Assembly: GCA_963800615.1 (NCBI GenBank)
Contig: CAWDBO010000021.1
Coordinates: forward strand, 504,166-568,165
DNA: 64,000 nt
Source: an uncultured Chloroflexia bacterium
GTDB lineage: Bacteria > Chloroflexota > Anaerolineae > CG2-30-64-16
Direction: 5' to 3'
In this document: positions 17,143 to 36,236 of the stretch, one piece after another
Position numbering within the stretch: position 1 is the first letter of the stretch
Layout: each line of letters begins with the position of its first letter
Notes under the pieces: generated by a model
Seen by the model: only the letters and a program-made list of their open reading frames with translations
What the model was told of the DNA's origin: nothing
Database searches by the model: none
Made by a program: the position numbers and the translations under genes

Positions 17143-18129
17143 CTACGCCTCGTTCGTCAGCGCCTGCCGCACCATGCGCTGTGCGGCCGCGGCGTTGCCC
17201 GCTCGAATGACCTCCGTGATGCGCTCGTGCCCCATGCGGTCCACAACCTTCCGCAGCGCCTGGAGCCACAGCACGCTTTCGGTGATCGCCTCCTCCGGGT
17301 TTTCGCGGTACGGGTACTGGTCGAGCGACAGGTACCCGTCGTAACCGACCCGGTCAAGCCAGTACAGCAGCTCCAGGTCTCGATCGTGTGTACCGATCCG
17401 ACGATCATGTCGTCGTCCCACAGCCGGTAGTTGTCGTTGAAGTGCATGTGGAACAGCTTGCTGCCCGCGTGCGACAGCATCGCGATGGATTCGCCCACGT
17501 CCTCGTAAGCCACCAGCGCGTGCCCGACGTCGATCGTTACGCCCACATTCGGCAGCCCGATTTCCTGCGCGATGAGCAGCGTCCCCGCCGCAGTGCCGAG
17601 ATAGCTGCGGTTGCGCGGCTCTTTGAGCTTGTACTCCAGTGATACCCGGACGTCCGCCCGGTGCTGCGCGCACTCGCGCAGCCCGCTCACGAGCCACTCG
17701 CGTTCCTGGAGATAGTCGGCCTCGAACGGGTAGTCGTAGCCGTCCTGGCCGTTCCAGATGTTGATCAGCCCGCAGCCCAGCTCCGCCGCGATGTCCATCA
17801 TGGCCTTGGTGTCCGCGATCGCCTGCGCCGCGCACCTTAGCGTCTTTCGAGGTGAAGGCACCCGAGCTATAGACCTGCGTCGCGAAATGATCGGGGATGA
17901 TCGAGACGAGCTTCAAGTTGTGGTCTTCGAGCTGCGTCTTCACCTCCTGCACGTTCTTCGTCGTGATGTGCCACGTGCCCACGATCTCGACGCCGCTGAG
18001 CCCCGGCACCGTGACCGCCGAATCGCACAGCTGCGCGAAGGTGCGGTCTTCGCCGTAACCCGAGAGGAATCGGTCCGACCGGTTGCCGAAGTTGCTGATG
18101 ATGACCGAGTACTTATCCTGCTTCACGTC
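17143..18129 (-). CDS. Xylose-isomerase-like TIM-barrel enzyme (sugar-phosphate isomerase/epimerase family); 2 frameshifts
   Basis: GTG start with AAGGAGG RBS near 18127 (VKQDKYSVIISNFGN..); middle in ORF 17157..17861 (..NIWNGQDGYDYPFEADY..VTIDVGHALVAYEDV..FHMHFNDN); C-terminus in 17143..18600 (LYWLDRVGYDGYLSLDQYPYRENPEEA). Confidence 0.6.
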   Translation of the reverse strand, partial: DVKQDKYSVIISNFGNRSDRFLSGYGEDRTFAQLCDSAVTVPGLSGVEIVGTWHITTKNVQEVKTQLEDHNLKLVSIIPDHFATQVYSSGAFTSKDAKVRGAGDRGHQGHDGHRGGAGLRADQHLERPGRLRLPVRGRLSPGTRVARERAARVRAAPGGRPGITGVQAQRAAQPQLSRHCGGDAAHRAGNRAAECGRNDRRRARAGGLRGRGRIHRDAVARGQQAVPHALQRQLPAVGRRHDRRIGTHDRDLELLYWLDRVGYDGYLSLDQYPYRENPEEAITESVLWLQALRKVVDRMGHERITEVIRAGNAAAAQRMVRQALTNEA

Positions 18130-19292
18130 TGCCTCCTTGTCATGCGTTCCACCGACCGCCGGAACTCCCGGCTGCTCTGGAGCAGGTCCGGGCCGTGGCT
18201 GTAGAGCCCGCCGGCGATCAGGAAGATGGCTTCTGAGCCGTAAAACTCGACCAGTTCGGGCATCCGCTCGAGCGTCATGCCGCCCGCGGGGATCGGGAAG
18301 ATGGGGGCCAGGCCGCCCATCGCCTCTTCTGTCCCCGCAACGATTCCCCGGCAATCCTCTTCGCTGAACGAGAACCGGCCCCCGTAGTTCACGAAGATCG
18401 TCGCGTCCGCGCCCGCCAGCCGGGGCAGCTGCCCGTACAGCACGTGGTGCGCCATCCCGTGCTCCGGGCTGACCGCAAAGGTCCCGAGCAAGGCCGGATG
18501 GCTGAGCACCGGCAGGGCCAGTGCATCGTCCTCCGCCAGCAGCCGCAGCGCATCCCAACCGGTGAGCCCCGGCGCGACCATCACCGCGCCCGCGCCCCAC
18601 GCTTTCGCCTGCATCGCCCGCGTCAGAATCCGGTCGGCCCGCGTCGTCACGTTCGGCGCGTACAGGCAGCGGTAGCCCGTCTCGCGGTTCGCCCGGCCGA
18701 CGGCCTCCGCGCAGCGCGGCACGCGCTCCTCGAACGGCGCGAACGGCTGGTCCGTCAGCCCGTGGTCCTCTTTGATGACGTCAACTCCGCCTAGCGCCAG
18801 CTGGTACGCGAGCTCGGCCAGGTCTTTCGCGCCCAGGCCCATCGGCTTCAGCGCCGTGCCCAGCAGCGGCCGCTCCGGCACGCCGAGGAGTGCCGCTTAT
18901 CCCCGCTCGCCCGAACCGCGGGCCCTTGTACTGGCGCAGGGTGCCCTCGGGGAGGTCGAGGTGCAGCACCCGGATCCCCGGCTGCATGGCCGAGTTCCCG
19001 AACACCACGTTCAGCAGCTGCGTCAGCTCGCCGGCCGCGGTCTCGACCGCGTAGCTGATGGCCGCGTCAAAGCTGCCCGCACCCGCGGCTCGCAGCGCCT
19101 CGATCCGCCCGACGACCTGGCCGCGGATGTCGTCGTCTGCCAGCAGCGCGTCCGATGTCTCGGTGGTCTGCTCCAGGCAGATGCCGCGGGCAATCGACCG
19201 CGCCTGCGCCTCGTCGCCGGCACGGAGCCGGTAATGGACCGTGAAGCGTTCGCCGGAGAGGGCCAGGCGGGTTGCAGGGAAGATCACGCGCG

Positions 19293-19296
<4 letters not shown>
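18123..19296 (-). CDS. RuBisCO-like protein (form IV RLP, large-subunit homolog); one frameshift near 18890
   Basis: N-domain in ORF 18781..19296 (GTG start overlapping the kinase stop: MTRVIFPATRLALSGERFTVHY..); C-domain in 18123..18881 (GLGAKDLAELAYQLALGGVDVIKEDHGL.., HPALLG, GGRFSF, IAGGLYSHG). Confidence 0.7.
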
Positions 19297-20851
<1,555 letters not shown>

Positions 20852-20879
20852 GATGAGTAGTTAGCAGGGGCAGGGTCCT

Positions 20880-21130
20880 GGACCACGAAGGCGCGAAATG
20901 GTCTGGACTACGAAGCCACGAAGGCGTCTGGACCACGAAGCCACGAAGGCTGCGAAGGACACGAAGCACGAAGCGTCTGGACCACGAAGCCGCGAATTTG
21001 GCGAAGGACGCGAAGCCGCGAAGCTTCACGAAGCCGCCTGCGACCAACGTTCTTCGCGTTCTTCGTGCTTCGTGTCCTTCGCAGACGCTGTCGCGGCTTC
21101 GTGGTCCAAGTCACGTTACGTCTTTGCGGT
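20880..21130. repeat. Intra-operon repeat array: about 25-bp direct repeats (GTCTGGACCACGAAGCCACGAAGGC x3-4 plus degenerate CGAAG/CACGAAG units) followed by their inverted complement (..CTTCGTGTCCTTCGCAG..GCGGCTTCGTGGTCCAAG)
   Basis: Seen directly in sequence between the dehydrogenase stop (21145) and FGGY kinase start (20851); can fold into long hairpins. Confidence 0.6.
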
Positions 21131-21144
21131 CCAAAGTGGCGATC

Positions 21145-22037
21145 CTACAGCTTCCTAACCTCAACCCCCGCCTGGTCCTCCAGGTTGCGGATCAGCGCGG
21201 AGGCGTTTTGATCGCCCCAGCCCTTGTTCACCGCGGCCTTGATGTTCTCGCGGATGGCTGCGGCGGCGGGCGTGGGGACGTTCAGATCCTGCGCGAAGCG
21301 GGCGATCAGGTTGGCATCCTTCAGCATGAGCTTCGAGCGCGAAGTGGGTCGAGAAGTCCCGGTTGATCAGCGCGTTGCCCACGCCGTCGAAGATCGGGGT
21401 CTTGAAGTCGGTGACGTGGAGCACGCCCAGGACGTCCTCGGGATTCAGGCCGGCCTTGGTCGCCATGATCATCGCTTCGCCCAGCGCCTCCATCTCGGCC
21501 GCGACGCAGAGGTTGCCGACCAGCTTCATCGCCGCGCCCTTGCCGTTCTCGCCCATGTAGTGGGTGGTCTCGCTCAGCGGCTCGAGGAGCGGCAGGACGC
21601 ACTCGTACAGGTCCCGGTCGCCGCCCGACGACGATCCACAGCCCGCCGTTCGCGGCTTCGTTCTTGCTGCCGAACACCGGCGCGTCCAGGAACTTCGCGC
21701 CCTTGGCCTTGTAGGCTGCCGCCTCTTTCAGGCTGGTCGATGGGTGCAGCGTCGTCATGTCCACGACGATCTGGCCCGCCTTGACCGCGTCCAGCAGGCC
21801 GCCCGCGCCCCACACCAGGTCTTCGACTGCCGCGTCGTCGCTCAGGCAGTACATGATCACCTCGGCGCCGTCCACTGCCTCCGCGGGCGTGGCCGCCTGC
21901 TTCGCGCCCCGGGCGACCAGGTCGGCGCACCGGTCCGGCGTGCGGTTCCACACGGTAACATCATGGCCGGCCTTGATCAGGTTCCCTGCCATGCCGCGTC
22001 CCATCGTGCCCATACCCAGATAAGCGATCTTGGTCAT
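21145..22037 (-). CDS. 3-hydroxyisobutyrate dehydrogenase / tartronate-semialdehyde reductase family NAD(P)-dependent oxidoreductase; 2 frameshifts
   Basis: N-terminal Rossmann [33 protein letters not shown] (21321..22037); middle (21161..21556: [20 protein letters not shown]); C-terminus (21145..21327). Confidence 0.65.
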
Positions 22038-22097
22038 CGAAATCCCCCTTCAGTGCGATTTGGAACTGTGTCAAGTGTCTCAATAGTGTCAGGTGTC

Positions 22098-23214
22098 TCA
22101 GGTTATACACACACCCCGGCATATTTGTTGCCGGCCTGAGAGAGAGCGGAGGTCACGTCTCGGTCTCGTCGCCGCTTCGTTTGGCGGCGTCTTCGGCTGG
22201 CGGTTGCGGCGGCGCTCGTCATAGTAGTTCAGGACCATGACCAGCAGCAGCAGCGCGCCCCACGCGAACTGGCGGAAGAAGATGGCCGCGCTGGAAGGAA
22301 AGAGACTCAGCATCAGGATGTTCAGCCCGGTGGAGAGGAACTGGATGGTAAACACCGAGAGCACGATGCCCGACATGCTGCCGAAACCCCCCGTCGTGCT
22401 CACCCCGCCCAGGATCGCGATCAGCACGGAGAGCAGGATGAACGAAGTGCCGTAGTCGGGCTTCGCCGAATTGGTCCGGGCCAGGAAGATGATGCCCGCC
22501 ACGCCCGCAGCCACGCCCGCCATCCAGTACGTTCGCATCAGCACGCGGAACGAGTTGATGCCCGAGAAGCGGGCGGCGGTCGCGTTCGTTCCCAGCATGT
22601 AGATGTTGAACCCGAAGGCGGAGCGGTTGAGCAACAGCGCGCCGAAAGCGGCCATCGCGATGAAGACCCACATCGGGTAGGGCACGCCGAGAAACGAGCC
22701 GTTGCCGATGAACGCCAACTGCGTTGTGGGGATGGCCGGCCCGCCGGTGATGACGAACGAAAGCCCGGTGTACAGCGCGCCGGTGCCCAGCGTCGCCAGG
22801 ATCGGGGTGATGCCGATGACCGACACGAGAAAGCCGTTCAGCAGGCCGCACAGCGAACCGACGACGAACGCCGCGCCGAAGGCCAGCGGAATGGCCACGG
22901 CCAGTGGCTCTCCTCCGCTCCCCGGTCATGCGAGTGAGGACAAGGGCCGCCACGATGGCCGAGAGGTTGGCCGCGCCCACGATCGAGAGGTCGATGCCGC
23001 CTGTCAGCATGGTAAGCATGATGCCGAGCGCCAGGATGCCGAACTCGGGCAGCTGGACGGCCATCGACTGCAGGTTGCGAACCGTGGCGAAAGTTCCCGG
23101 CAGGACGATGCTGAACGCGATGAACAAGATGATCGCGATCACCAGCAGCCGCAGCGTCGGGGTGTCGAACGGCAGGCGGTTTCTGATCGAGCTGGAAGTG
23201 GTTTTTGCTGCCAT
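22098..23214 (-). CDS. Sugar ABC transporter permease 2 (RbsC family); one frameshift near 22900
   Basis: [31 protein letters not shown]...GGIDLSIVG (22219..23214) continuing in 22098..22898. Confidence 0.65.
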
Positions 23215-23224
23215 GTCTCTCGTC

Positions 23225-24265
23225 CTATGCCGGGTGCTGCACGCCGGCCGTGGGGCCGGCGGTGGGGCCGCTGGTCGACACAGCAGCCATGCGCTTGCTC
23301 GCGCGCCGCGCCTGGATCGCCGGGAGCCCGGTGCCGACCAGGATGATGATGCCGATCACCACCCGCTGCCACACCGAAGGCACCCCGATCAGGATCAGGC
23401 TGTTGTTGGCAATGGTCACCAGCGCCACGCCGAGGAGCGTCCCGATCACCGTGCCGCGGCCGCCGGTCAGCGTGGCCCCGCCGAGGACCACGGCCGCGAT
23501 AACGCTCAGCTCCGTGCCGACCAGGGCTTGCGGCTCAGCCTGCCGGGCCAGCGACCCGAACGTCATCCCCGCAATGCCGGACAACACGCCCACGAACGCG
23601 TAGATAAAGTACTGGGTCCGCGCGATGTTGAAGCCTGCGCGCTCGGCGGCCTCACGCGCGCCGCCCAGCGCATAGATGCCGCGCCCGAGCATCGTGTAAT
23701 TCAGCAGGAAATAGGTGATCAATGATCGCGCCGAGCGTGATGAAGATGGCCGGGTGCAAATTGGCGATGCCGCGTTCGAGGGGACGCGCACGATCGCGCT
23801 CCGGGCAAAGGCCGTCAGCGCGGGCGGCACGTCGCGGATGATGTTGTTCCCGATCACGACGAGCAGGAAGCCCTGGAACATGCTCATCGTGCCCAGCGTG
23901 ACGATCAGCGTCGGCAGCTTGAACTTCGCGATGAAGAACCCGTTGATGAGCCCCAGGCACAGCCCGATCAACCCGGCGACGATGAAGGCCGGCCAAATCG
24001 GCGCGTCGGGCGCAAACCCCTTCATCAGCTTCACCGTCGAGTAGAGCGCGAAGATACCGATCGCCATGAACGATAGGTCGATCCCGCCCGAAACGAGCAC
24101 GATCAGGACGCCCATTGCGAAAATGCCGATGACGATGCTGCTTCGGAGCAGATCGAAGAGGTAGCCGATCGAGAAGAAGACCGGGTTCCGAAGCCCGATG
24201 ATCAGGGCCAGAACGATGATGGTAATCGCCACCAGGAATTCGCTGCGGCGCAGGAGTCGGTCCAT
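23225..24265 (-). CDS. Sugar ABC transporter permease 1 (RbsC family)
   Basis: 346-aa ORF with multiple TM helices and [12 protein letters not shown] motif. Confidence 0.7.
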
Positions 24266-24268
24266 GGC

Positions 24269-25769
24269 TTATTCCTCGATCAGCTTGGCGGTCAGCCGGT
24301 TTTCGGTCGTTTCTTCGGGCCGGATTTCGTCCACGATCTGCCCGTGGCGCATGAGCAGGATCCGATTGCACGTCTGGAGCAGCTCCGGGATATCGTCCGA
24401 AATCACCAGCAGCCCCATGCCCTCGCCCGCCAGCCGGCGCATCATGTCGTGCAGCTCGTCCTTCGAGCCGATATCGACGCCCACCGTCGGCCCGTTGAGG
24501 ATCATCAGCCGAGGCTTGCTGGCCAGCCACTTTGCCAGCACCACCCGCTGCTGGTTCCCGCCCGACAGCGTCTTGACGGGCAGGTCCGGGTTGGCGGTCT
24601 TGATGCGGAGCGAATCGACCCAGGTTGTCCACCTGCCCCTTCACCCGCCGCGGGTCGGTCAAGCCGAGCTTGTTGTGCAGCTGGTCGATGACCCGCACGA
24701 CCACGTTCCGGGAGATGGCCTGCTCCAGGAAGAGCCCCTCGCTCAGCCGGTCTTCAGGCACGTAGCCGATGCCGTGATCGATCGCATTCTGGATCGACCG
24801 GATGGTCACCGGCTTCCCGTCCATGCTGATGTGGCCGGAATCGATCGGCAGCATGCCGAAGAGCGCCAGCGCCAGCTCGGTGCGCCCGGAGCCGAGCAGG
24901 CCGGTCACGCCCACGATCTCGCCGCCGCGCATCTCAAAATTGATGTCCCTGAGCGCCTGGTCGACGTTCAGCCCCTCGACCTTCAGCAGCGGGGGCTTGC
25001 CCGGGTCCGGCGTGAACCGGTAGGTCTTTTCGGTGATGGCGTGGCCGGTCATTTCCAGGATCAGGCGGGCCGTATTGTATTCCTTGCGGTCGCCCGTGCT
25101 GACCACTTTGCCGTTCCGCATCACCACGATGGTCTGCGAGATTTCCAGCACTTCATTCAGCTTGTGGCTGACAAAGAGGAAAGTAATGCCCCGCGCCTGC
25201 AGCTTGTGGATCACCGCGAAAAGGGCCCGGATCTCCCGTTCCGTCAGCGCGCTCGTCGGCTCGTCCATGATGATGAGCCGGGCATTTTGACGCAGCGCCT
25301 TGGAGATGGCGATGAGCTGCTTGTTGGCAACCGACACCTCCTCCACCCGCGCGTCGAGGGGTATGCTCACCTCGATCTGCGCCAGCGCGTCCTTGGCGAT
25401 GTCGCGCACCTTGCGCCAGTTAACCAGGCGCTGGCCCTCGGCCAGCTGCTCGTTCAGGGCGATGTTCTCGGCGACCGTGAGGTTCGGAAAAAGGGAAAAG
25501 TCCTGGTAAATAACCTGGATGCCCTCACGGATCGAGTCGATCGGCCGCAGGTGCTCGTGCTCTTTCCCGTTGATGGCGATCGTGCCCGCATCCTGCTCAT
25601 ACACGCCGGCGATGATCTTGATCAGGGTGGATTTGCCGCAGCCGTTCTCGCCGACCAGGCAGTGGATCTTGCCCGTCTCGATGGTCATGCTGACGTCTTG
25701 CAGCGCACGCACGCCGGCAAATGACTTGTAGATGCCGGTCAGTCGCAGGAGTTCCTCGGCCATAGCCAT
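24269..25769 (-). CDS. Sugar ABC transporter ATP-binding protein, duplicated-NBD (RbsA/MglA type); frameshift(s) near 24550-24650
   Basis: First NBD intact ([22 protein letters not shown]) in 23652..25769; second NBD in 24269..24544 ([29 protein letters not shown]). Confidence 0.7.
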
Positions 25770-25887
25770 CGCCTCGTAGGAGCTAAGAAGCGGCGGGGAT
25801 GAGGGGATGAGGGGATGGCCGTAGGAGCGGGGTCACCCCGCCCCTACGAGCCTCTGCCTCATCCCCGCAACCCCGCTGGTCATCCGC

Positions 25888-27147: not shown

Positions 27148-27777
27148 TCAGCCGTTAATGGCCTGGAGCACGAGAACGAACATCGCACAGCCCGCGTCGA
27201 CCTTGCCTTCGGTGCGCTCTCCCACCCAACTGGCGCGGCCGACCTTGCTGCGGAGTGGCGTGACGCTGTCCCGGCCGGCTGCCGCCGCTTCGACCGCGGC
27301 CGCGCCGGCTGCCTGCAGCCCGGCCCCCGCCTCGATCGCCGCGGCAAAAGCCTCGCTCGCCGGGTGCAGGGCATCGACGATGGTCTTGTCGCCGGGTTTC
27401 GCCTTGCCGCGGGTCTGGATGCCTTCGTCCGCGGCCCGGAACATGGCGGCCAGGTCGCTCGGCTGGAGCTCCGTCTGGCCGCGCACGACCTTGCCCGCGC
27501 TCATCGAGCGCGCCCGCGGTCAGGGTCCCCATGGTCGACGGCGCGGCCTTGTTCGTGGCCGTGCCCAGCTGGAACAGGTACTTGCCGATGTCGTCGATCG
27601 GGTTGGCATTGACATACTCGAGCAGGGCTTCGCCGATCCTGCCCATCGTGATGCCCATGTCGCCATCGCCCATCGCCTGGTCCAGCGACGTCAGGTAATC
27701 GACCTGCCCGACCATCGCCCGGGCGACCCGGCGGACGGCGTCGACGATGTCACTTCCCTGGATAGTGTCCGTCATGA
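27148..27777 (-). CDS. dhaL: Dihydroxyacetone-kinase L subunit (DAK2/DhaL domain, nucleotide-binding); one frameshift near 27490
   Basis: [44 protein letters not shown] (DGDxG motif) in 27155..28315; C-terminus in 27148..27504. Confidence 0.65.
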
Positions 27778-27792
27778 GCTCCTCTTTCGGCC

Positions 27793-28795
27793 TCAGACCT
27801 GCGTGAAGAACGGCGTGCGCGCGGGATGGTCCAGCAGCCCCGCCAGCTCGTCGTCCACCCGCATCAGCGTGATGCTCGCGCCGGCCATTTCCATCGAGGT
27901 TGCGTACTCGCCGACGTAGGCCCGGTGGATGCCGATGCCCTGCCCGGCCAGGATCTCGTGGGCCTTCCGATAGATGATGTAGAGCTCTTCGGGAGGCGTC
28001 GCGCCGAGGCCGTTCACCATGACGGCCAGTCGGTCGCCGGCCGCGGGCTTGAGGTCTTCCAGGATCGCGCTCATCATGCGCTCGGTGATCTCGTCCGCGC
28101 TCTGGAGCTTCTCGCGTTTCATCCCCGGCTCGCCGTGGATGCCCATGCCGATCTCCATCTCGTCGTCGCCGATCGTGAACGTGGGCTTCCCGGCCAGCGG
28201 CACCGTGCAGGGCGACAGCGCGACGCCCATGGTGCGGGTGTTCGCCAGCGCCTTCTCCGCGGCCGCGACCACGTCGTCGAGCGAGCCGCCCTGGTCGGCC
28301 CGGGCGCCCGCGCACTTGAAGGCGAAGACCATGCCTGCGACGCCTCGGCGGCGGCCGGCTTCTGCCGGCGGCGCGGACGCGACGTCATCCTTGACCAACA
28401 CCGTGCGGACCTCGATGTTGTCTTCGAAGTTGACCGTCTCGGCCGCCATGTCGAAATTCAGGACATCCCCACCATAATTGCCGTAAATGTAGACGACGCC
28501 CGCGCCGCCGTGGATACGCCGGGTGACCGCGGCCATCTGGTCCGCGCTCGGGCGAGGAAAACACGTCGCCCACCGCGCACCCATCCAGCATGCCCTTGCC
28601 CACATAGCCCAGGAACACGGGCAGGTGGCCGGACCCGCCGCCCGTCGCCAGCGCCACCTTGCCCTGCACAGGCGAGTCGGCGCGCACGATGCAGTGCAGG
28701 TCGCCCTCGTAAGCAAGCTGATCGGGATGCGCCTTGATCAAGCCATCGAGCATCTCGGGAACGAAATTCGCCGCTCTATTCAGGATTTTCTTCAT
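27793..28795 (-). CDS. dhaK: Dihydroxyacetone-kinase K subunit (DAK1/DhaK domain); one frameshift near 28530
   Basis: N-terminus [35 protein letters not shown] (28385..28795); remainder in 27793..28716 (..[18 protein letters not shown]..). Confidence 0.7.
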
Positions 28796-32402: not shown

Positions 32403-34449
32403 TTGACACAAAGACCCCACGGCCAGCCGTGGCGATTGGCCTTACATATTTCCGTTGCGCTCGTCCTGCTGCTCCTCCTGGTCATCCCAGTGGTGAGCGC
32501 TGGCAGTGCGGCCGCAGCGGCGTCGGCGCCCATCACCTTCGCGGTGATTGGCGATTACGGAGCAGACACGAGCAATGAGGGGGCCGTCAGGTCACTCGTA
32601 AATGGCTGGTCACCCGCCTTCATTGCCACAGTAGGGGACAACTTCTACAATGCCGCCCTCGATTCAGGCGACACGGGCAACAAATACCACGAGTCGACGG
32701 GCAAGTACTACTGCAGCTATCTGAAGGATGTGGCCGGGACAGACACCTGTCCGACCGGCCAGGCCGCGACCAACGCGTTCTTCCCCGCGATGGGCAACCA
32801 TGACTACAGCGATGCGACGCCTGCGCCCGGAACCTACACCGACTACTTCACGCTGCCCGGCAGCGGCGTCGCCACGAGCGGCAGTTCGGGCAATGAACGA
32901 TACTATGACTTCGTCGAGGGACCCGTTCATTTCTTCGTCCTGAACAGCAACACGGCGGAGCCGGACGGCACGAGCAGCACGAGCGATCCAGGCGCGGTGG
33001 CTGCAGGCGCAGCTGGGCGCGTCCACGGCCGCCTGGAACATCGTGCTCTTCCACCATCCGCCCTACTCGTCCGATTCGTCGCACGGCTCGACGACCTACA
33101 TGCAGTGGCCGTTCGCCCAGTGGGGCGCGGACGCGGTGCTGGCCGGCCATGCCCACGATTACGAGCGCATCGTGCGCGATGGGATCGTGTACTTCGTGAA
33201 CGGGCTCGGCGGCGCGTCGTTGTACGGCTTCGGCACGCCGGTCGCCGGCAGCGCGTTCCGCTACAGCGCCAAGTACGGCGCCCAGCGGGTGACGGCTACC
33301 GACACCAGCCTGACGTTCGAGTTCGTCTCGGTGGATGGGGTGGTGCAGGACTCGTACGCGGTCTCGGCGGGTCAGGCCCCGACGCCGACCCCAACCGCGG
33401 CCGCCAGTGCGACGCCCGCGCCGACAACCGCCTCGACTGCGACGCCCGTCGCCGCCACTGCCACGCCCGTGCCTTCAGGTGCGGTCACTGTGGCCTTCCA
33501 GAACGGCGTTGCGCCGAGCTCGGCCTACGCGGGCGGCGACGATGCCTATCTGTCCCAGGCGAATCCGGGGAGCAACTATGGAGGGGCGAGCTCCTGCCTT
33601 GCCGATGGGGACGACCCGGTTGGCTCGGGAAACGATCTCTCGTGTATGCTGCGCTGGGATGTCAGCTCGATTCCGACGGGAAGCACGGTCACCGCGGCCG
33701 GCATCACGCTCAACGTGACCAACGCTTCGAACGGCAGCTATCCGATCTACCAGCTGCTGCAGCCGTGGCGTGAGGCGGAGGCGACGTGGAACGTGTTCGC
33801 GTCCGGGCAGGCGTGGGTGCGCCCGGCGCGCTGAGCAGCGCGGATCGCGGGGCAGAAGCGCTCGGCGCAGTTGCTGCGTCGGGCACCGGCTCGCGTACGG
33901 TCAACCTTAACAGTCGCGGGGATTGCGGCGGTTCAGTCCTGGATCGATTCGCCGGGTGGGAATCAGGGCTTGATCATTGCGGACACGAATGTCAGCGACG
34001 GTGCGGATTTCTCCTCGAATGAGTCCGGCACCGCGGCAAACCGGCCGAAGCTCACGATACAGTACCTGCCGCCCGCCGGTGGGAGTCAGCCGACGCCCAC
34101 GCCTGTGGTCTCCGACTCTCTGCACGTGGGCGATTTGGACGGCTCGGCGACGCGAGGGTCCAGCCACTGGGCCGCCACGGTCGTGATCACGGTGCATGAT
34201 GCGGCGCACAACGACCGTGCGGGTGTGACTGTGAGTGGGAGCTGGGGCGCGGGCGCATCCGGCACGGCCGCATGCACGACCGGAACGAATGGCGCATGCT
34301 CCGTCCGGAAGGGCTCGCTGTCCTCGTCGACGAACAGCGTGCAATTCAGCATCACGAGCGTAACGGCCAGCGGCGCCACCTATGACGCCGCCGCAAACCA
34401 CGACCCCGACGGTGACAGCGACGGCACGACCATCGTCGTGACCCGCTAA
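32403..34449 (+). CDS. Secreted multidomain metallophosphoesterase (calcineurin-like) with P/T-rich linker and C-terminal beta-rich accessory domains; 2 frameshifts
   Basis: Signal peptide (32403..), metallophosphatase motifs GDYG, GDNFY, GNHDY, GHAHDYER across 32403..33773 and 33043..33834; linker TPTPTAAASATPAPTTAS; C-terminal part in 33871..34449. Confidence 0.6.
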
Positions 34450-34618
34450 CCAGCTCACGAATGACCTCCGAGGTCTTCAAGACCTCGGAGGTCTGCCGCC
34501 CCCCGGGGAGCTCACGCAAACCACGACCCCGACGGCGACAGCGACGGCAGGACACTCGTCGTGACCCGCTAACCAGCTCACGAATGACCTCCGAGGTCTC
34601 GAAGACCTCGGAGGTCTG
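34393..34618. repeat. 103-bp imperfect tandem duplication (copy A 34393-34495, copy B 34516-34618, about 94% identity) covering the last 55 nt and stop codon of the phosphoesterase gene; each copy ends in a 13-bp-stem palindromic hairpin GACCTCCGAGGTC-N5-GACCTCGGAGGTC
   Basis: Read directly; copy A contains the TAA stop at 34447-34449. Confidence 0.7.
34465..34495. terminator. Bidirectional hairpin (13-bp perfect stem, 5-nt loop) between the convergent phosphoesterase and MttB-1 genes; second copy at 34588-34618
   Basis: GACCTCCGAGGTCTTCAAGACCTCGGAGGTC; no U-tract, so intrinsic terminator function is not shown. Confidence 0.4.
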
Positions 34619-34648: not shown

Positions 34649-36022
34649 CTACAGTGCGGCCAACCCCATCGTCCGCACCTCGCACTTGATCTCTTCGTAT
34701 AGTCCATTCCAGGCTTGCGTCGGGTGCACGGTCACCAGGTCATATACTTCGTTAAACGGTAAGCCCTGATTTTCCGGCGCGCCCTTCTGGAACAGGAACT
34801 CGTAACGCTTCACGAGCGCGACTGCCAGCTCGTTGGCCCGCTCGAGATCGAGCGCCTGCTCCGTCGCGGCCCGGCCCACTTCGGCCATGAACCGCGCCTC
34901 GAGCCCGCTGGCATGGTGGACCTTGCCGTCGGCCGCACCGCAGCCCTCCAGGTGGCTCCCGCTGACCGTGTGGACGATCGCGTTGGCCGCGGTCTCGTAC
35001 AGCAGCTCGCGCGTTCCCGCGCCCGACTTCGGGTAGATGTCCCCCACGATGACGCACGGCGACCGTTGGGCGAACGCCTGCGCCACGATGCTGCTGACCC
35101 ACAGCACCGCCCGCGTGCTGGTCGCCACGTGCCGGATGTCGATGGGGTGAAGCAGGTGATAGTCCGCCGCGCAGCACAGGTTGGCGAGGATGAAGGAGGC
35201 GGCTTGCACCACCGCGGACCCCGGCGCGGCCCCGCCCATGCCGCCGACGATCACGCACGCGAGGCTCGCATTCAGCATCCCATAATCCAGCGAGTTGATC
35301 ACCCGCGCCAGGTTGCGGTTCTCGATCTTCAGCTCGTTCAGCATCGGCACAAGGTGCGCGTCGCACGGCCGCATGAAAGCGGGACTCGCGACCGAGAGGT
35401 CGCCGATCTCGGACACGCTGCTCTGTGCGGCCAGCAGCCCCGTGCCGGGCCGCCCGGCCTGGCGCAGCGCCTCGCGCAGGTAAGCCAGCTCGCGCCGGGT
35501 CGCGGTGATCTCCAGCGGCGAGCCTGTCTCCACCACCCGGCCGTCCACGTGCGTCAGCGTGCCGCAGGTGACCATGTCGATCAGCCGCTCCTGCGCGTAC
35601 GAGAGGGTCATCGGGACGAAGAGCTGCTCGGGAACCGGGGTGCCCGGCGTGCCGCCCCACGCCTTCGGTGGGCGCCGGTCACAGACCGTGCGGGCATCGA
35701 GCGTGCGCGCGTCCTTCCCCTCCCCCAGCGTGATCGACCGCGGCGCGGCGCGCAGGCCCTGCAGCAGCTCGTCGGGCGTAAAGCGGACGGCCCGGCCGGT
35801 TGAGTAGTTGTAGACCCCCTGCCGCTCGGCCAGCTCGAACGCGGCGTCGAACAGCGCGCTCGCCCGGGCCGGGTCGTCGTTGATCACCCGCGTCTTGTCC
35901 CAGTCCAGCCCGTGCTTCTTGACCAGCTCGCGGGTGGTCATCGCCACTTCATAGTCCCAATCCGACGCGGACAGCGCCCGGCCTTGCTCGCTGCGTTCGA
36001 GGATTTCGAGGAAATTGAGCAC
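34649..36022 (-). CDS. MttB-superfamily (trimethylamine-methyltransferase-like) corrinoid-dependent methyltransferase, non-pyrrolysine type (MttB-1)
   Basis: 457-aa uninterrupted ORF; GTG start at 36022 with AAGGAG RBS; no in-frame TAG. Confidence 0.8.
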   Translation of the reverse strand: MLNFLEILERSEQGRALSASDWDYEVAMTTRELVKKHGLDWDKTRVINDDPARASALFDAAFELAERQGVYNYSTGRAVRFTPDELLQGLRAAPRSITLGEGKDARTLDARTVCDRRPPKAWGGTPGTPVPEQLFVPMTLSYAQERLIDMVTCGTLTHVDGRVVETGSPLEITATRRELAYLREALRQAGRPGTGLLAAQSSVSEIGDLSVASPAFMRPCDAHLVPMLNELKIENRNLARVINSLDYGMLNASLACVIVGGMGGAAPGSAVVQAASFILANLCCAADYHLLHPIDIRHVATSTRAVLWVSSIVAQAFAQRSPCVIVGDIYPKSGAGTRELLYETAANAIVHTVSGSHLEGCGAADGKVHHASGLEARFMAEVGRAATEQALDLERANELAVALVKRYEFLFQKGAPENQGLPFNEVYDLVTVHPTQAWNGLYEEIKCEVRTMGLAAL

Positions 36023-36064
36023 GCTGAGTCTCCTTGTGAGTGAGGTGCTTGGATCAGATCGCCA

Positions 36065-36236
36065 CGAGACCTCCGAGGTCCTCGCCAGCGCTGCTGGCGC
36101 AAGACCTCGGAGGTCAACTCGGACCTCGGAAGTTAGCTCGGAGCCCCGAAGTCAGCTCGTACCTCGGAGGTCAGCCCGTATCGAGGTGAACTCGGGGACT
36201 CGGACCTCGGAGGTCAGCTCGGACCTCGGAGGATGC
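36065..36236. repeat. Array of about 8 tandem 19-20-bp repeats (consensus GACCTCGGAGGTCAGCTCG) with the same palindromic core as the 34.4-kb hairpins
   Basis: Read directly; lies between the amidohydrolase 3' end and the MttB-1 RBS. Confidence 0.65.

Follow-up and report, generated by a model that had tools for sequence, protein, structure and literature searches.

The 64-kb window analyzed here (64,000 nucleotides of contig CAWDBO010000021.1, from an uncultured Chloroflexia bacterium) carries an operon in which a repeat array at positions 20876-21135 nearly fills the spacer between the genes of a dehydrogenase and an FGGY-family sugar kinase. This intercistronic spacer, bounded by the dehydrogenase stop and the kinase start, measures 321 nt in total (20840-21160, minus strand). 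We consider the array most probably a gene-less, compound copy of a hairpin repeat that is dispersed in Chloroflexota, and a passive insertion present in this lineage only. One element (20970-21111) would have been inserted into the spacer of this lineage, after which tandem amplification of its arm-end segment would have produced 20876-20974 and a decayed unit at 21112-21135, likely by slippage or unequal exchange among the short units. As a feature of the operon the array is ordinary; the part worth following is its possible link to a superfamily of hairpin cassettes.

Architecture and folding of the array

On the plus strand, four head-to-tail units starting with (G/T)(T/C)CTGGAC(C/T)ACGAAG are found at 20876, 20901, 20926, and 20975. 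The exact 25-mer GTCTGGACCACGAAGCCACGAAGGC occupies 20926-20950, and near copies of it lie at 20901-20925 (1 mismatch), 20975-20999 (4 mismatches), and 20876-20900 (7 mismatches). Tandem Repeats Finder (TRF) reports a period of 25 nt with 4.8 copies at 20878-20996 and a period of 49 nt with 2.4 copies at 20905-21024. Shorter CRCGAAG sub-units come after the 25-nt units, and reverse-complement units span 21049-21135. The arms pair perfectly in two places, namely 20950-20973 with 21061-21084 (24/24) and 20978-20995 with 21091-21108 (18/18), and the motif counts of the array were reached by 0 of 100 dinucleotide shuffles. Units, mismatches, TRF periods, and both pairings bear out the direct 25-bp repeats with an inverted complement that the initial annotation had described.

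Dissected into its parts, the window copy is one full core flanked by three tandem arm-end segments and, at its opposite end, by a single decayed one. The core, a full-length hairpin element delimited by profile match and fold (20970-21111), reads on the coding strand from the head TTGGACCACGAAGCCGCGA... through a loop to the tail ...TCGCGGCTTCGTGGTCCAGAC; its ends in the window, ACCACGAAG and CTTCGTGGT, match ACCRC...GYGGT arm ends. In the loop lies the motif CTGCGACCAAC (21038-21048; coding strand GTTGGTCGCAG), an 11-mer found again, identically, in the loop of the copy in locus L087 of an Anaerolineae metagenome-assembled genome (MAG). An extra 49-nt arm unit (20926-20974), of which the 20950-20973 part is the perfect complement of 21061-21084, adjoins the core and is preceded by an extra 25-nt arm unit, GTCTGGACTACGAAGCCACGAAGGC (20901-20925; partial profile match, E = 0.005), and by a more diverged outermost one, TCCTGGACCACGAAGGCGCGAAATG (20876-20900; partial profile match, E = 0.012). 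On the opposite arm, the decayed extra unit (...CGTCTTTGCGGTCCAAAG; 21112-21135) is recognizable from the repeat pair 21094-21109 / 21119-21134 (81%) and from an inverted repeat. The 25-nt periodicity would thus result from the tandem amplification of the arm-end segment. As an aside, GCGAAGC, the sequence of the very stable DNA mini-hairpin d(GCGAAGC) (PMC13037366), occurs twice at 21008-21027; this match is probably a coincidence because other unit families do not fit the motif.

Folding confirms the potential of the transcript to form a hairpin, as had been proposed earlier. The spacer folds on the coding (minus) strand with -155.5 kcal/mol (mean of shuffles, -111.8; z = -10.1), and on the plus strand with -153.6 kcal/mol (z = -7.5); a near-equal fold of both strands is expected of a DNA palindrome. 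The RNA fold of the core (20970-21111) reaches -84.3 kcal/mol (z = -7.6) with a terminal helix of 19 bp, and together with the adjoining 49-nt unit it reaches -118.4 kcal/mol (z = -9.8) in a nearly continuous helix of ~45 bp.

The suggestion of an internal attenuator, on the other hand, found no support, as there is no T-run behind the hairpin (the sequence continues with GGACCCTGCCCC) and a promoter/terminator scan of 20500-21500 found neither promoter-like nor terminator-like sites. No Rfam family reached its gathering threshold in the window, where the search gave chance-level matches to miRNA precursors only (E of 0.2 or more).

The regular spacing of short units on both arms could also be read at the DNA level, as an array of CRCGAAG sites, spaced by 8-9 bp, to which a regulator or nucleoid protein would bind. 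The spacing is in fact irregular (7-10 nt), no regulator gene is associated, other taxa have the units genome-wide and invariably together with their complements, and orthologous operons lack the array. We therefore regard a protein-binding array as highly improbable.

A dispersed hairpin family in Chloroflexota

Genomes, one per species, were scanned for the 18-mer TGGACCACGAAGCCRCGA; the counts are lower bounds and the shares of taxa approximate. The 18-mer was found at at least 117 genome loci, at least 43 of them in Chloroflexota MAGs (labeled Anaerolineae, Caldilineales, Litorilinea, or 'Chloroflexia'). Among the matches listed, ~30 separate contigs of a single MAG (JAYUYB01) carry it, several copies each are present in the MAGs CAWEHT01, JBBITV01, CAYRFV01, and JACSRL01, and the loci outside Chloroflexota mostly look like single chance matches within genes. 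Viral contigs scanned with the same 18-mer gave 0 matches.

In nearly all Chloroflexota loci a 70-140-nt hairpin begins at its 5' side with the 18-mer; fold energies range from -36 to -81 kcal/mol. The family has a common build: a start TGGACCACGAAG, 7-9-nt CRCGAAG units (CGCGAA/CACGAAG), a loop, CTTCGYG units (TTCGCG/CTTCGTG), and an end CTTCGTGGTCCA, the hairpin end in these loci reading CGTTCGTGGTCCAGAC. The window element has the same composition, with TGGACCACGAAG ... CTTCGTGGTCCA ends enclosing CRCGAAG units and their complements. The flanking DNA is unrelated from copy to copy. According to a crude gene call, the copies are intergenic and lie among tandem, convergent, and divergent genes, without orientation bias (10 vs 7).

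Alignment of 22 JAYUYB01 copies yielded a profile hidden Markov model (nhmmer), which matches the window at full length solely at 20970-21109 (E = 2.9e-12 on the plus and 8.7e-12 on the minus strand). Weaker, partial matches fall on the extra units, at 20925-20956, 20901-20925, and 20878-20902. For the same 22 copies, RNAalifold gave a weak consensus with zero compensatory pairs, owing to the close similarity of the copies and their ambiguous register; consequently, no covariance model was built and the sequence profile was used instead.

The family is prone to amplify its arm ends in tandem. Similar compound copies were found with blastn in L043, L067, L109, L039, and L025; tandem arm tails recur in L043 (four of 24 nt) and, several at a time, in L071, L018, and L111, and whole copies stand side by side in L039, L067, and L109. 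The most extensive case is a minisatellite in L025 (2-729), in which a 58-nt arm unit of the family is repeated 12.6 times, with 95% matches, up to the contig end. Five head-only copies (L113, L110, L116, L091, and L085) look truncated, since neither a distant tail nor a common cargo gene was found for them. The JAYUYB01 elements carry a conserved 5' extension of ~60 nt. At L087 (274-536 and 759-856), the gene of a signal-recognition-particle RNA is followed, ~220 nt downstream, by one family copy.

Three JAYUYB01 copies (L042 1484-1732, L052 632-882, and L034 3226-3440) lie between direct repeats, which measure 37, 36, and 13 bp against a null maximum of 13; the remaining copies have none. 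Flanking direct repeats are a mark of insertion, and at 13-37 bp they are unusually long and variable for target duplications made by a transposase. This bears on a classical miniature inverted-repeat transposable element (MITE), that is, a deletion derivative of an insertion sequence (IS) moved by a DDE transposase that recognizes TGGACCACGAAG terminal inverted repeats. The family does share terminal inverted repeats, small size, lack of coding capacity, many copies, and unrelated flanks with MITEs. Its arms, however, are assembled from short units whose number varies, in place of a fixed terminal inverted repeat, the flanking duplications have no fixed length and are missing in the window, and no IS with these ends was noticed in ~250 kb of family-bearing 8-kb loci, which were not searched systematically for one. 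A MITE in this strict sense is improbable, though the least so among the rivals that we weighed.

In the open-access literature we found no account of the motif, the family, or Chloroflexi REPs (repetitive extragenic palindromes) or MITEs like it, which is no proof of its being undescribed.

Orthologous operons

The composite kinase reconstructed from the window is 83-88% identical to proteins of Caldilineales/Chloroflexota MAGs. Nine syntenic operons share the gene order importer, dehydrogenase, kinase, and RuBisCO-like protein (RLP), and the family motif is present in 0 of the 9. Three of them have a dehydrogenase-to-kinase spacer without any insert, of 5 bp (L205), 9 bp (P0009 contig), and 22 bp (L204). 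Spacers of 92 bp (L121, 4909-5000), 94 bp (L119, 4907-5000), and 99 bp (L122, 4902-5000) each hold one small GC-rich stem-loop. The others are longer and differ from one another: 222 bp with a different unit-built hairpin of GACGAT units in a Caldilineales MAG (L120, 4779-5000), about 240 bp of unrelated sequence (L118), and about 950 bp with an inserted AT-rich open reading frame (ORF) of 284 aa (L123, 4052-5000). Judging from these spacers, the junction needs no long spacer and is a recurrent landing site of unrelated insertions.

Some of these inserts deserve a closer description in their own right. The stem-loop that L121, L122, and L119 have in common reads GCGCCCTTGC...GCAAGGGCGC; in L121, TTTTTT stands behind it, which gives it the look of an internal terminator. 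The hairpin of L120 places GACGATGGACGATAGACGAT opposite ATCGTCCATCGT...ATCGTC, with GATATTGGGTATTGGATA and TATCCAATACCCAATA as outer arms. The 284-aa ORF of L123, with the palindrome GACCTGACAGGTTTTGGAAAACCTGTCAGGTC before it, has no Pfam or NCBIfam match and gives the impression of a mobile gene within an otherwise GC-rich operon.

With a dedicated role, the array would be a cis-regulatory RNA (attenuator, processing site, or stabilizer) selected to separate the importer half of the operon from the kinase/RLP half; the initial annotation had weighed the first two of these. Several facts speak for such a role: the array is part of an operon, is on its transcribed strand, and has a very strong fold; a small GC-rich stem-loop is present in three orthologous spacers (92-99 bp), in one case with a T-run behind it; and the binding-protein-to-ATPase spacer of the same operon has a hairpin as well. 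However, the array is missing from all nine orthologous operons, three of which manage with junctions of 5-22 bp, and the family recurs at dozens of unrelated loci in every gene orientation. T-run, terminator-like site, compensatory changes among copies, and Rfam match are likewise all lacking. Since the array is absent from the nine orthologues and matches a dispersed repeat, the regulatory interpretation is not supported; the comparison of syntenic operons has largely refuted it already, and we rate it as very unlikely.

Comparison with known repeat classes

A small insertion of a REP-like element had been another early suggestion, and among the early suggestions it is the one that finds support, at least in spirit. 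The insertion of a dispersed hairpin is what the family and its absence from orthologues point to, whereas size, tag, and unit set it apart from a REP proper. REPs and bacterial interspersed mosaic elements (BIMEs) of Proteobacteria are, like the family, extragenic palindromic repeats that are often clustered and often found in spacers of ATP-binding cassette (ABC) importer operons. The ability to stabilize upstream mRNA may be counted as a further shared trait, by analogy, for the window element. Mobilization by a REP-associated tyrosine transposase (RAYT, IS200-like Y1) would accordingly account for an extragenic, palindromic, multicopy, clustered repeat that sits in an operon spacer beside an ABC importer, as classic REPs do. 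Yet the 25-nt unit is not palindromic, the window element is much longer, with arms of short direct units, and the family hairpin measures 70-140 nt against the 20-40 nt of REPs. There is no unpaired GTAG or CGTC tag (CGTC/GACG lies in the stem here), and tblastn with a RAYT query found no RAYT-like ORF in the window, which is a weak test. The gene beside family members, moreover, encodes a PD-(D/E)XK protein of the GxxExxY type and not a Y1 transposase. A RAYT-mobilized REP/BIME is thus very unlikely. The CGTC-tagged REP class (PMC3733652) was considered in view of GCGTC unit starts and ruled out, as the CGTC is paired and the stem sizes differ.

Closer parallels in build are offered by the intervening sequences (IVSs) in 23S rRNA genes of Coxiella, Leptospira, and Salmonella. 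The Coxiella IVS has a 28-bp terminal stem, its small ORF is preceded by tandem heptamers (GACAGAT) that vary in number, and RNase III excises it (PMC4990558). IVSs and the Chloroflexota family have in common a long terminal inverted-repeat stem, variable tandem units of heptamer type, and an optional small ORF in the loop, namely S23p for the IVSs and GxxExxY for relatives of the family. A terminal stem of at least ~20 bp is expected of an IVS, and the perfect helices of the window element have 24 bp and 18-19 bp. Unlike an IVS, the window copy has no ORF and lies between protein genes instead of in rRNA, and no rRNA was found beside family copies in 40 family-bearing Chloroflexota loci. The Chloroflexota copies thus resemble IVSs in build and are not members of the IVS class, because they do not lie in rRNA genes.

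Correia elements of Neisseria and the enterobacterial ERIC/IRU elements are co-transcribed, and their hairpins are cut by RNase III or alter mRNA stability. They too are non-coding inverted-repeat elements in intergenic or intercistronic DNA, with unrelated sequence; a fixed TA-type target duplication is missing in the Chloroflexota family, which alone has unit-built arms and arm-end amplification. Cyanobacterial STRR heptamer arrays and mycobacterial MIRUs are short intergenic or intercistronic tandem units of varying copy number. These are direct repeats without an obligatory complementary arm, whereas in the Chloroflexota family every unit array has its complement. All in all, the element behaves like the hairpin MITEs (Correia, ERIC) and the IVSs; it is neither a REP nor a terminator.

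GxxExxY genes between unit-built arms

In L109 (a Chloroflexota MAG) and L043 (a Caldilineales MAG), family hairpins are found on both sides of a 137-aa gene, and these two loci have in common nothing but the gene and the hairpins. The gene encodes a GxxExxY protein (TIGR04256, E = 3e-24; PF13366 PD-(D/E)XK, E = 1.5e-26). An alphaproteobacterial MAG adds a third example (L002); around the GxxExxY gene of L076, arms of this kind are missing.

Metagenomes scanned with an alignment of these GxxExxY proteins gave 80 distant homologs (L124-L203; 30-40% identity, GC content 30-64%), 74 of which have both flanks. At 28 of these 74 loci, complementarity between the upstream and downstream flanks exceeds the 99th percentile of a cross-locus null, a score reached by only 0.33% of random placements in unrelated loci. 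The arms consist of two to four tandem 7-9-nt units (CGCCAAG, CGCAGAG, CACAGAG, CACAGAT, CGCAAAG, CGCCGAG, CACGGAG, or CACGAAG), with the purine-rich arm upstream of the ORF. ACCRCNRAK upstream, combined with a complement ending in GYGGT downstream, occurs at 19/74 loci (wrong side: 4-5). GxxExxY genes, for example those of L149, L169, L192, and L147, commonly lie in the loop of, or between, inverted arms whose unit sequence varies by lineage. This layout recalls the build of the Coxiella 23S rRNA IVS. We found no account of this arm regularity in the open-access literature on GxxExxY and PDDEXK_3, which does not prove that it is undescribed.

These observations allow a wider reading, which we put forward as possible and rather doubtful. 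The array would be a solo, non-autonomous member of an undescribed hairpin-cassette superfamily, with arms of CRCNRAG-type 7-9-nt units and ACCRC...GYGGT ends. Its full form would enclose a small gene for a GxxExxY PD-(D/E)XK nuclease, possibly a mobilizing or homing enzyme, and the classic 23S IVSs would be an rRNA-borne branch. The window holds no GxxExxY gene and the element no ORF, so that the window copy is of the solo form. That the link between the family, GxxExxY genes, and IVSs reflects a true evolutionary or mechanistic relation is somewhat easier to accept, being at best an evenly balanced matter. If true, solo hairpins would relate to GxxExxY cassettes as REPs do to RAYTs. Inverted arms built of units, with conserved ends, very often enclose GxxExxY genes; they would be a candidate substrate for a PD-(D/E)XK family of unknown function, and the arm regularity would tie the GxxExxY family to the long-unexplained origin of the rRNA IVSs.

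A probable passenger insertion and its possible effect on the operon

The element is best pictured as non-autonomous and as selfish, neutral, or nearly neutral, and a GxxExxY-type nuclease may take part in its spread. Four points weigh against our preferred reading of the array as a lineage-specific passenger. First, the 64-kb window holds a single copy, multicopy dispersal being known from other MAGs. Second, the window copy has no detectable target-site duplication (none above the null), and no filled/empty pair is close enough to define its ends. Third, 6 of the 9 orthologous spacers hold a stem-loop, a hairpin element, or another insertion, because of which some selection for structure at the junction may still be at work. 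Fourth, the GxxExxY link of the exact family consists of 2-3 loci, and most copies are solo.

As a passenger insertion, the array has little weight for the operon and should not be annotated as a conserved regulator, though it may split the polycistronic mRNA. Owing to its position inside the operon, the element is probably co-transcribed with it. Perfect long helices are a typical substrate of bacterial RNase III, and long stems also block 3' exonucleases. The 24-bp perfect helix, within a near-perfect double-stranded RNA (dsRNA) stem of ~45 bp, could thus be cut by RNase III or halt 3' exonucleases. The mRNA of importer and dehydrogenase would then be partly uncoupled from that of kinase and RLP as a side effect. 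By analogy with the stems of 23S rRNA IVSs, Correia elements, and REPs, such an RNase III effect on the operon mRNA is a predicted by-product, conceivable and somewhat short of probable.

Gene context and assembly quality

The dehydrogenase, the FGGY kinase, and the RLP are encoded on the minus strand. Upstream of the spacer lies the gene of a HIBADH-type NAD(P) dehydrogenase (21161-22037), which is frameshifted in the assembly (Pfam NAD_binding_2, E = 2e-40; NAD_binding_11, E = 3e-12) and whose stop TGA is the reverse complement of 21161-21163. The downstream FGGY-family sugar kinase (19293-20839, with an approximate lower bound) is recognized by FGGY_N and FGGY_C (Pfam) on three frames. Its start, the ATG at 20839, follows a GGAG and agrees with the MSGPY start of homologs; its 3' end overlaps the RLP gene (18123-19296, Pfam), and it contains three frameshifts. 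Beyond the kinase, the RLP, a xylose-isomerase-like TIM-barrel protein, and a glyoxalase are encoded. Two details of the earlier description of the operon had to be corrected. Not every other junction is 50 bp or shorter, as the binding-protein-to-ATPase spacer, with a hairpin of its own, measures ~118 nt and the permease-to-dehydrogenase spacer ~60 nt, and the genes upstream of the importer (27151-28716) are not mtnA/mtnK but Dak1/Dak2 (dihydroxyacetone kinase).

Most genes of the window are split by frameshifts (e.g., 19067-20851, 21161-22037, and 23652-25769), the FGGY kinase being spread over four frames. This is typical of an uncorrected, error-prone long-read assembly, and the syntenic ENA contig L118 is affected likewise; the number of array units and single bases may therefore be slightly off. 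One could go further and attribute the whole array to assembly error, given how full of frameshifts the genes are. Many independent short-read MAGs contain the family too, however, with identical ends and comparable tandem tails, which makes an artefact barely credible and leaves only the unit count in doubt. Conversely, hairpin repeats of this kind interrupt assemblies, with several copies located at contig ends, and give rise to spurious ORFs.

Other repeats in the window

Two further spacers of the operon contain repeated units. The binding-protein-to-ATPase spacer holds a second unit-built hairpin (25775-25870, minus strand; -58.6 kcal/mol, z = -6.1), with the arms GCGGGGATGAGG and CCTCATCCCCTCATCCCCGC made of GGGGATGA units. 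In the permease-to-dehydrogenase spacer, four direct 9-nt units (TGAGACACC / TGACACTAT / TGAGACACT / TGACACAGT) stand at 22067-22100 without a complementary arm. Elsewhere in the window, a 123-nt unit is repeated 1.8 times at 34392-34618 and a 19-nt unit 6.6 times at 36040-36232, both being built on the palindrome GACCTCSGAGGTC. An MtmB-family gene (34649-36022, minus strand) has one of these GACCTCSGAGGTC arrays at either end; they represent a different repeat family of similar style.

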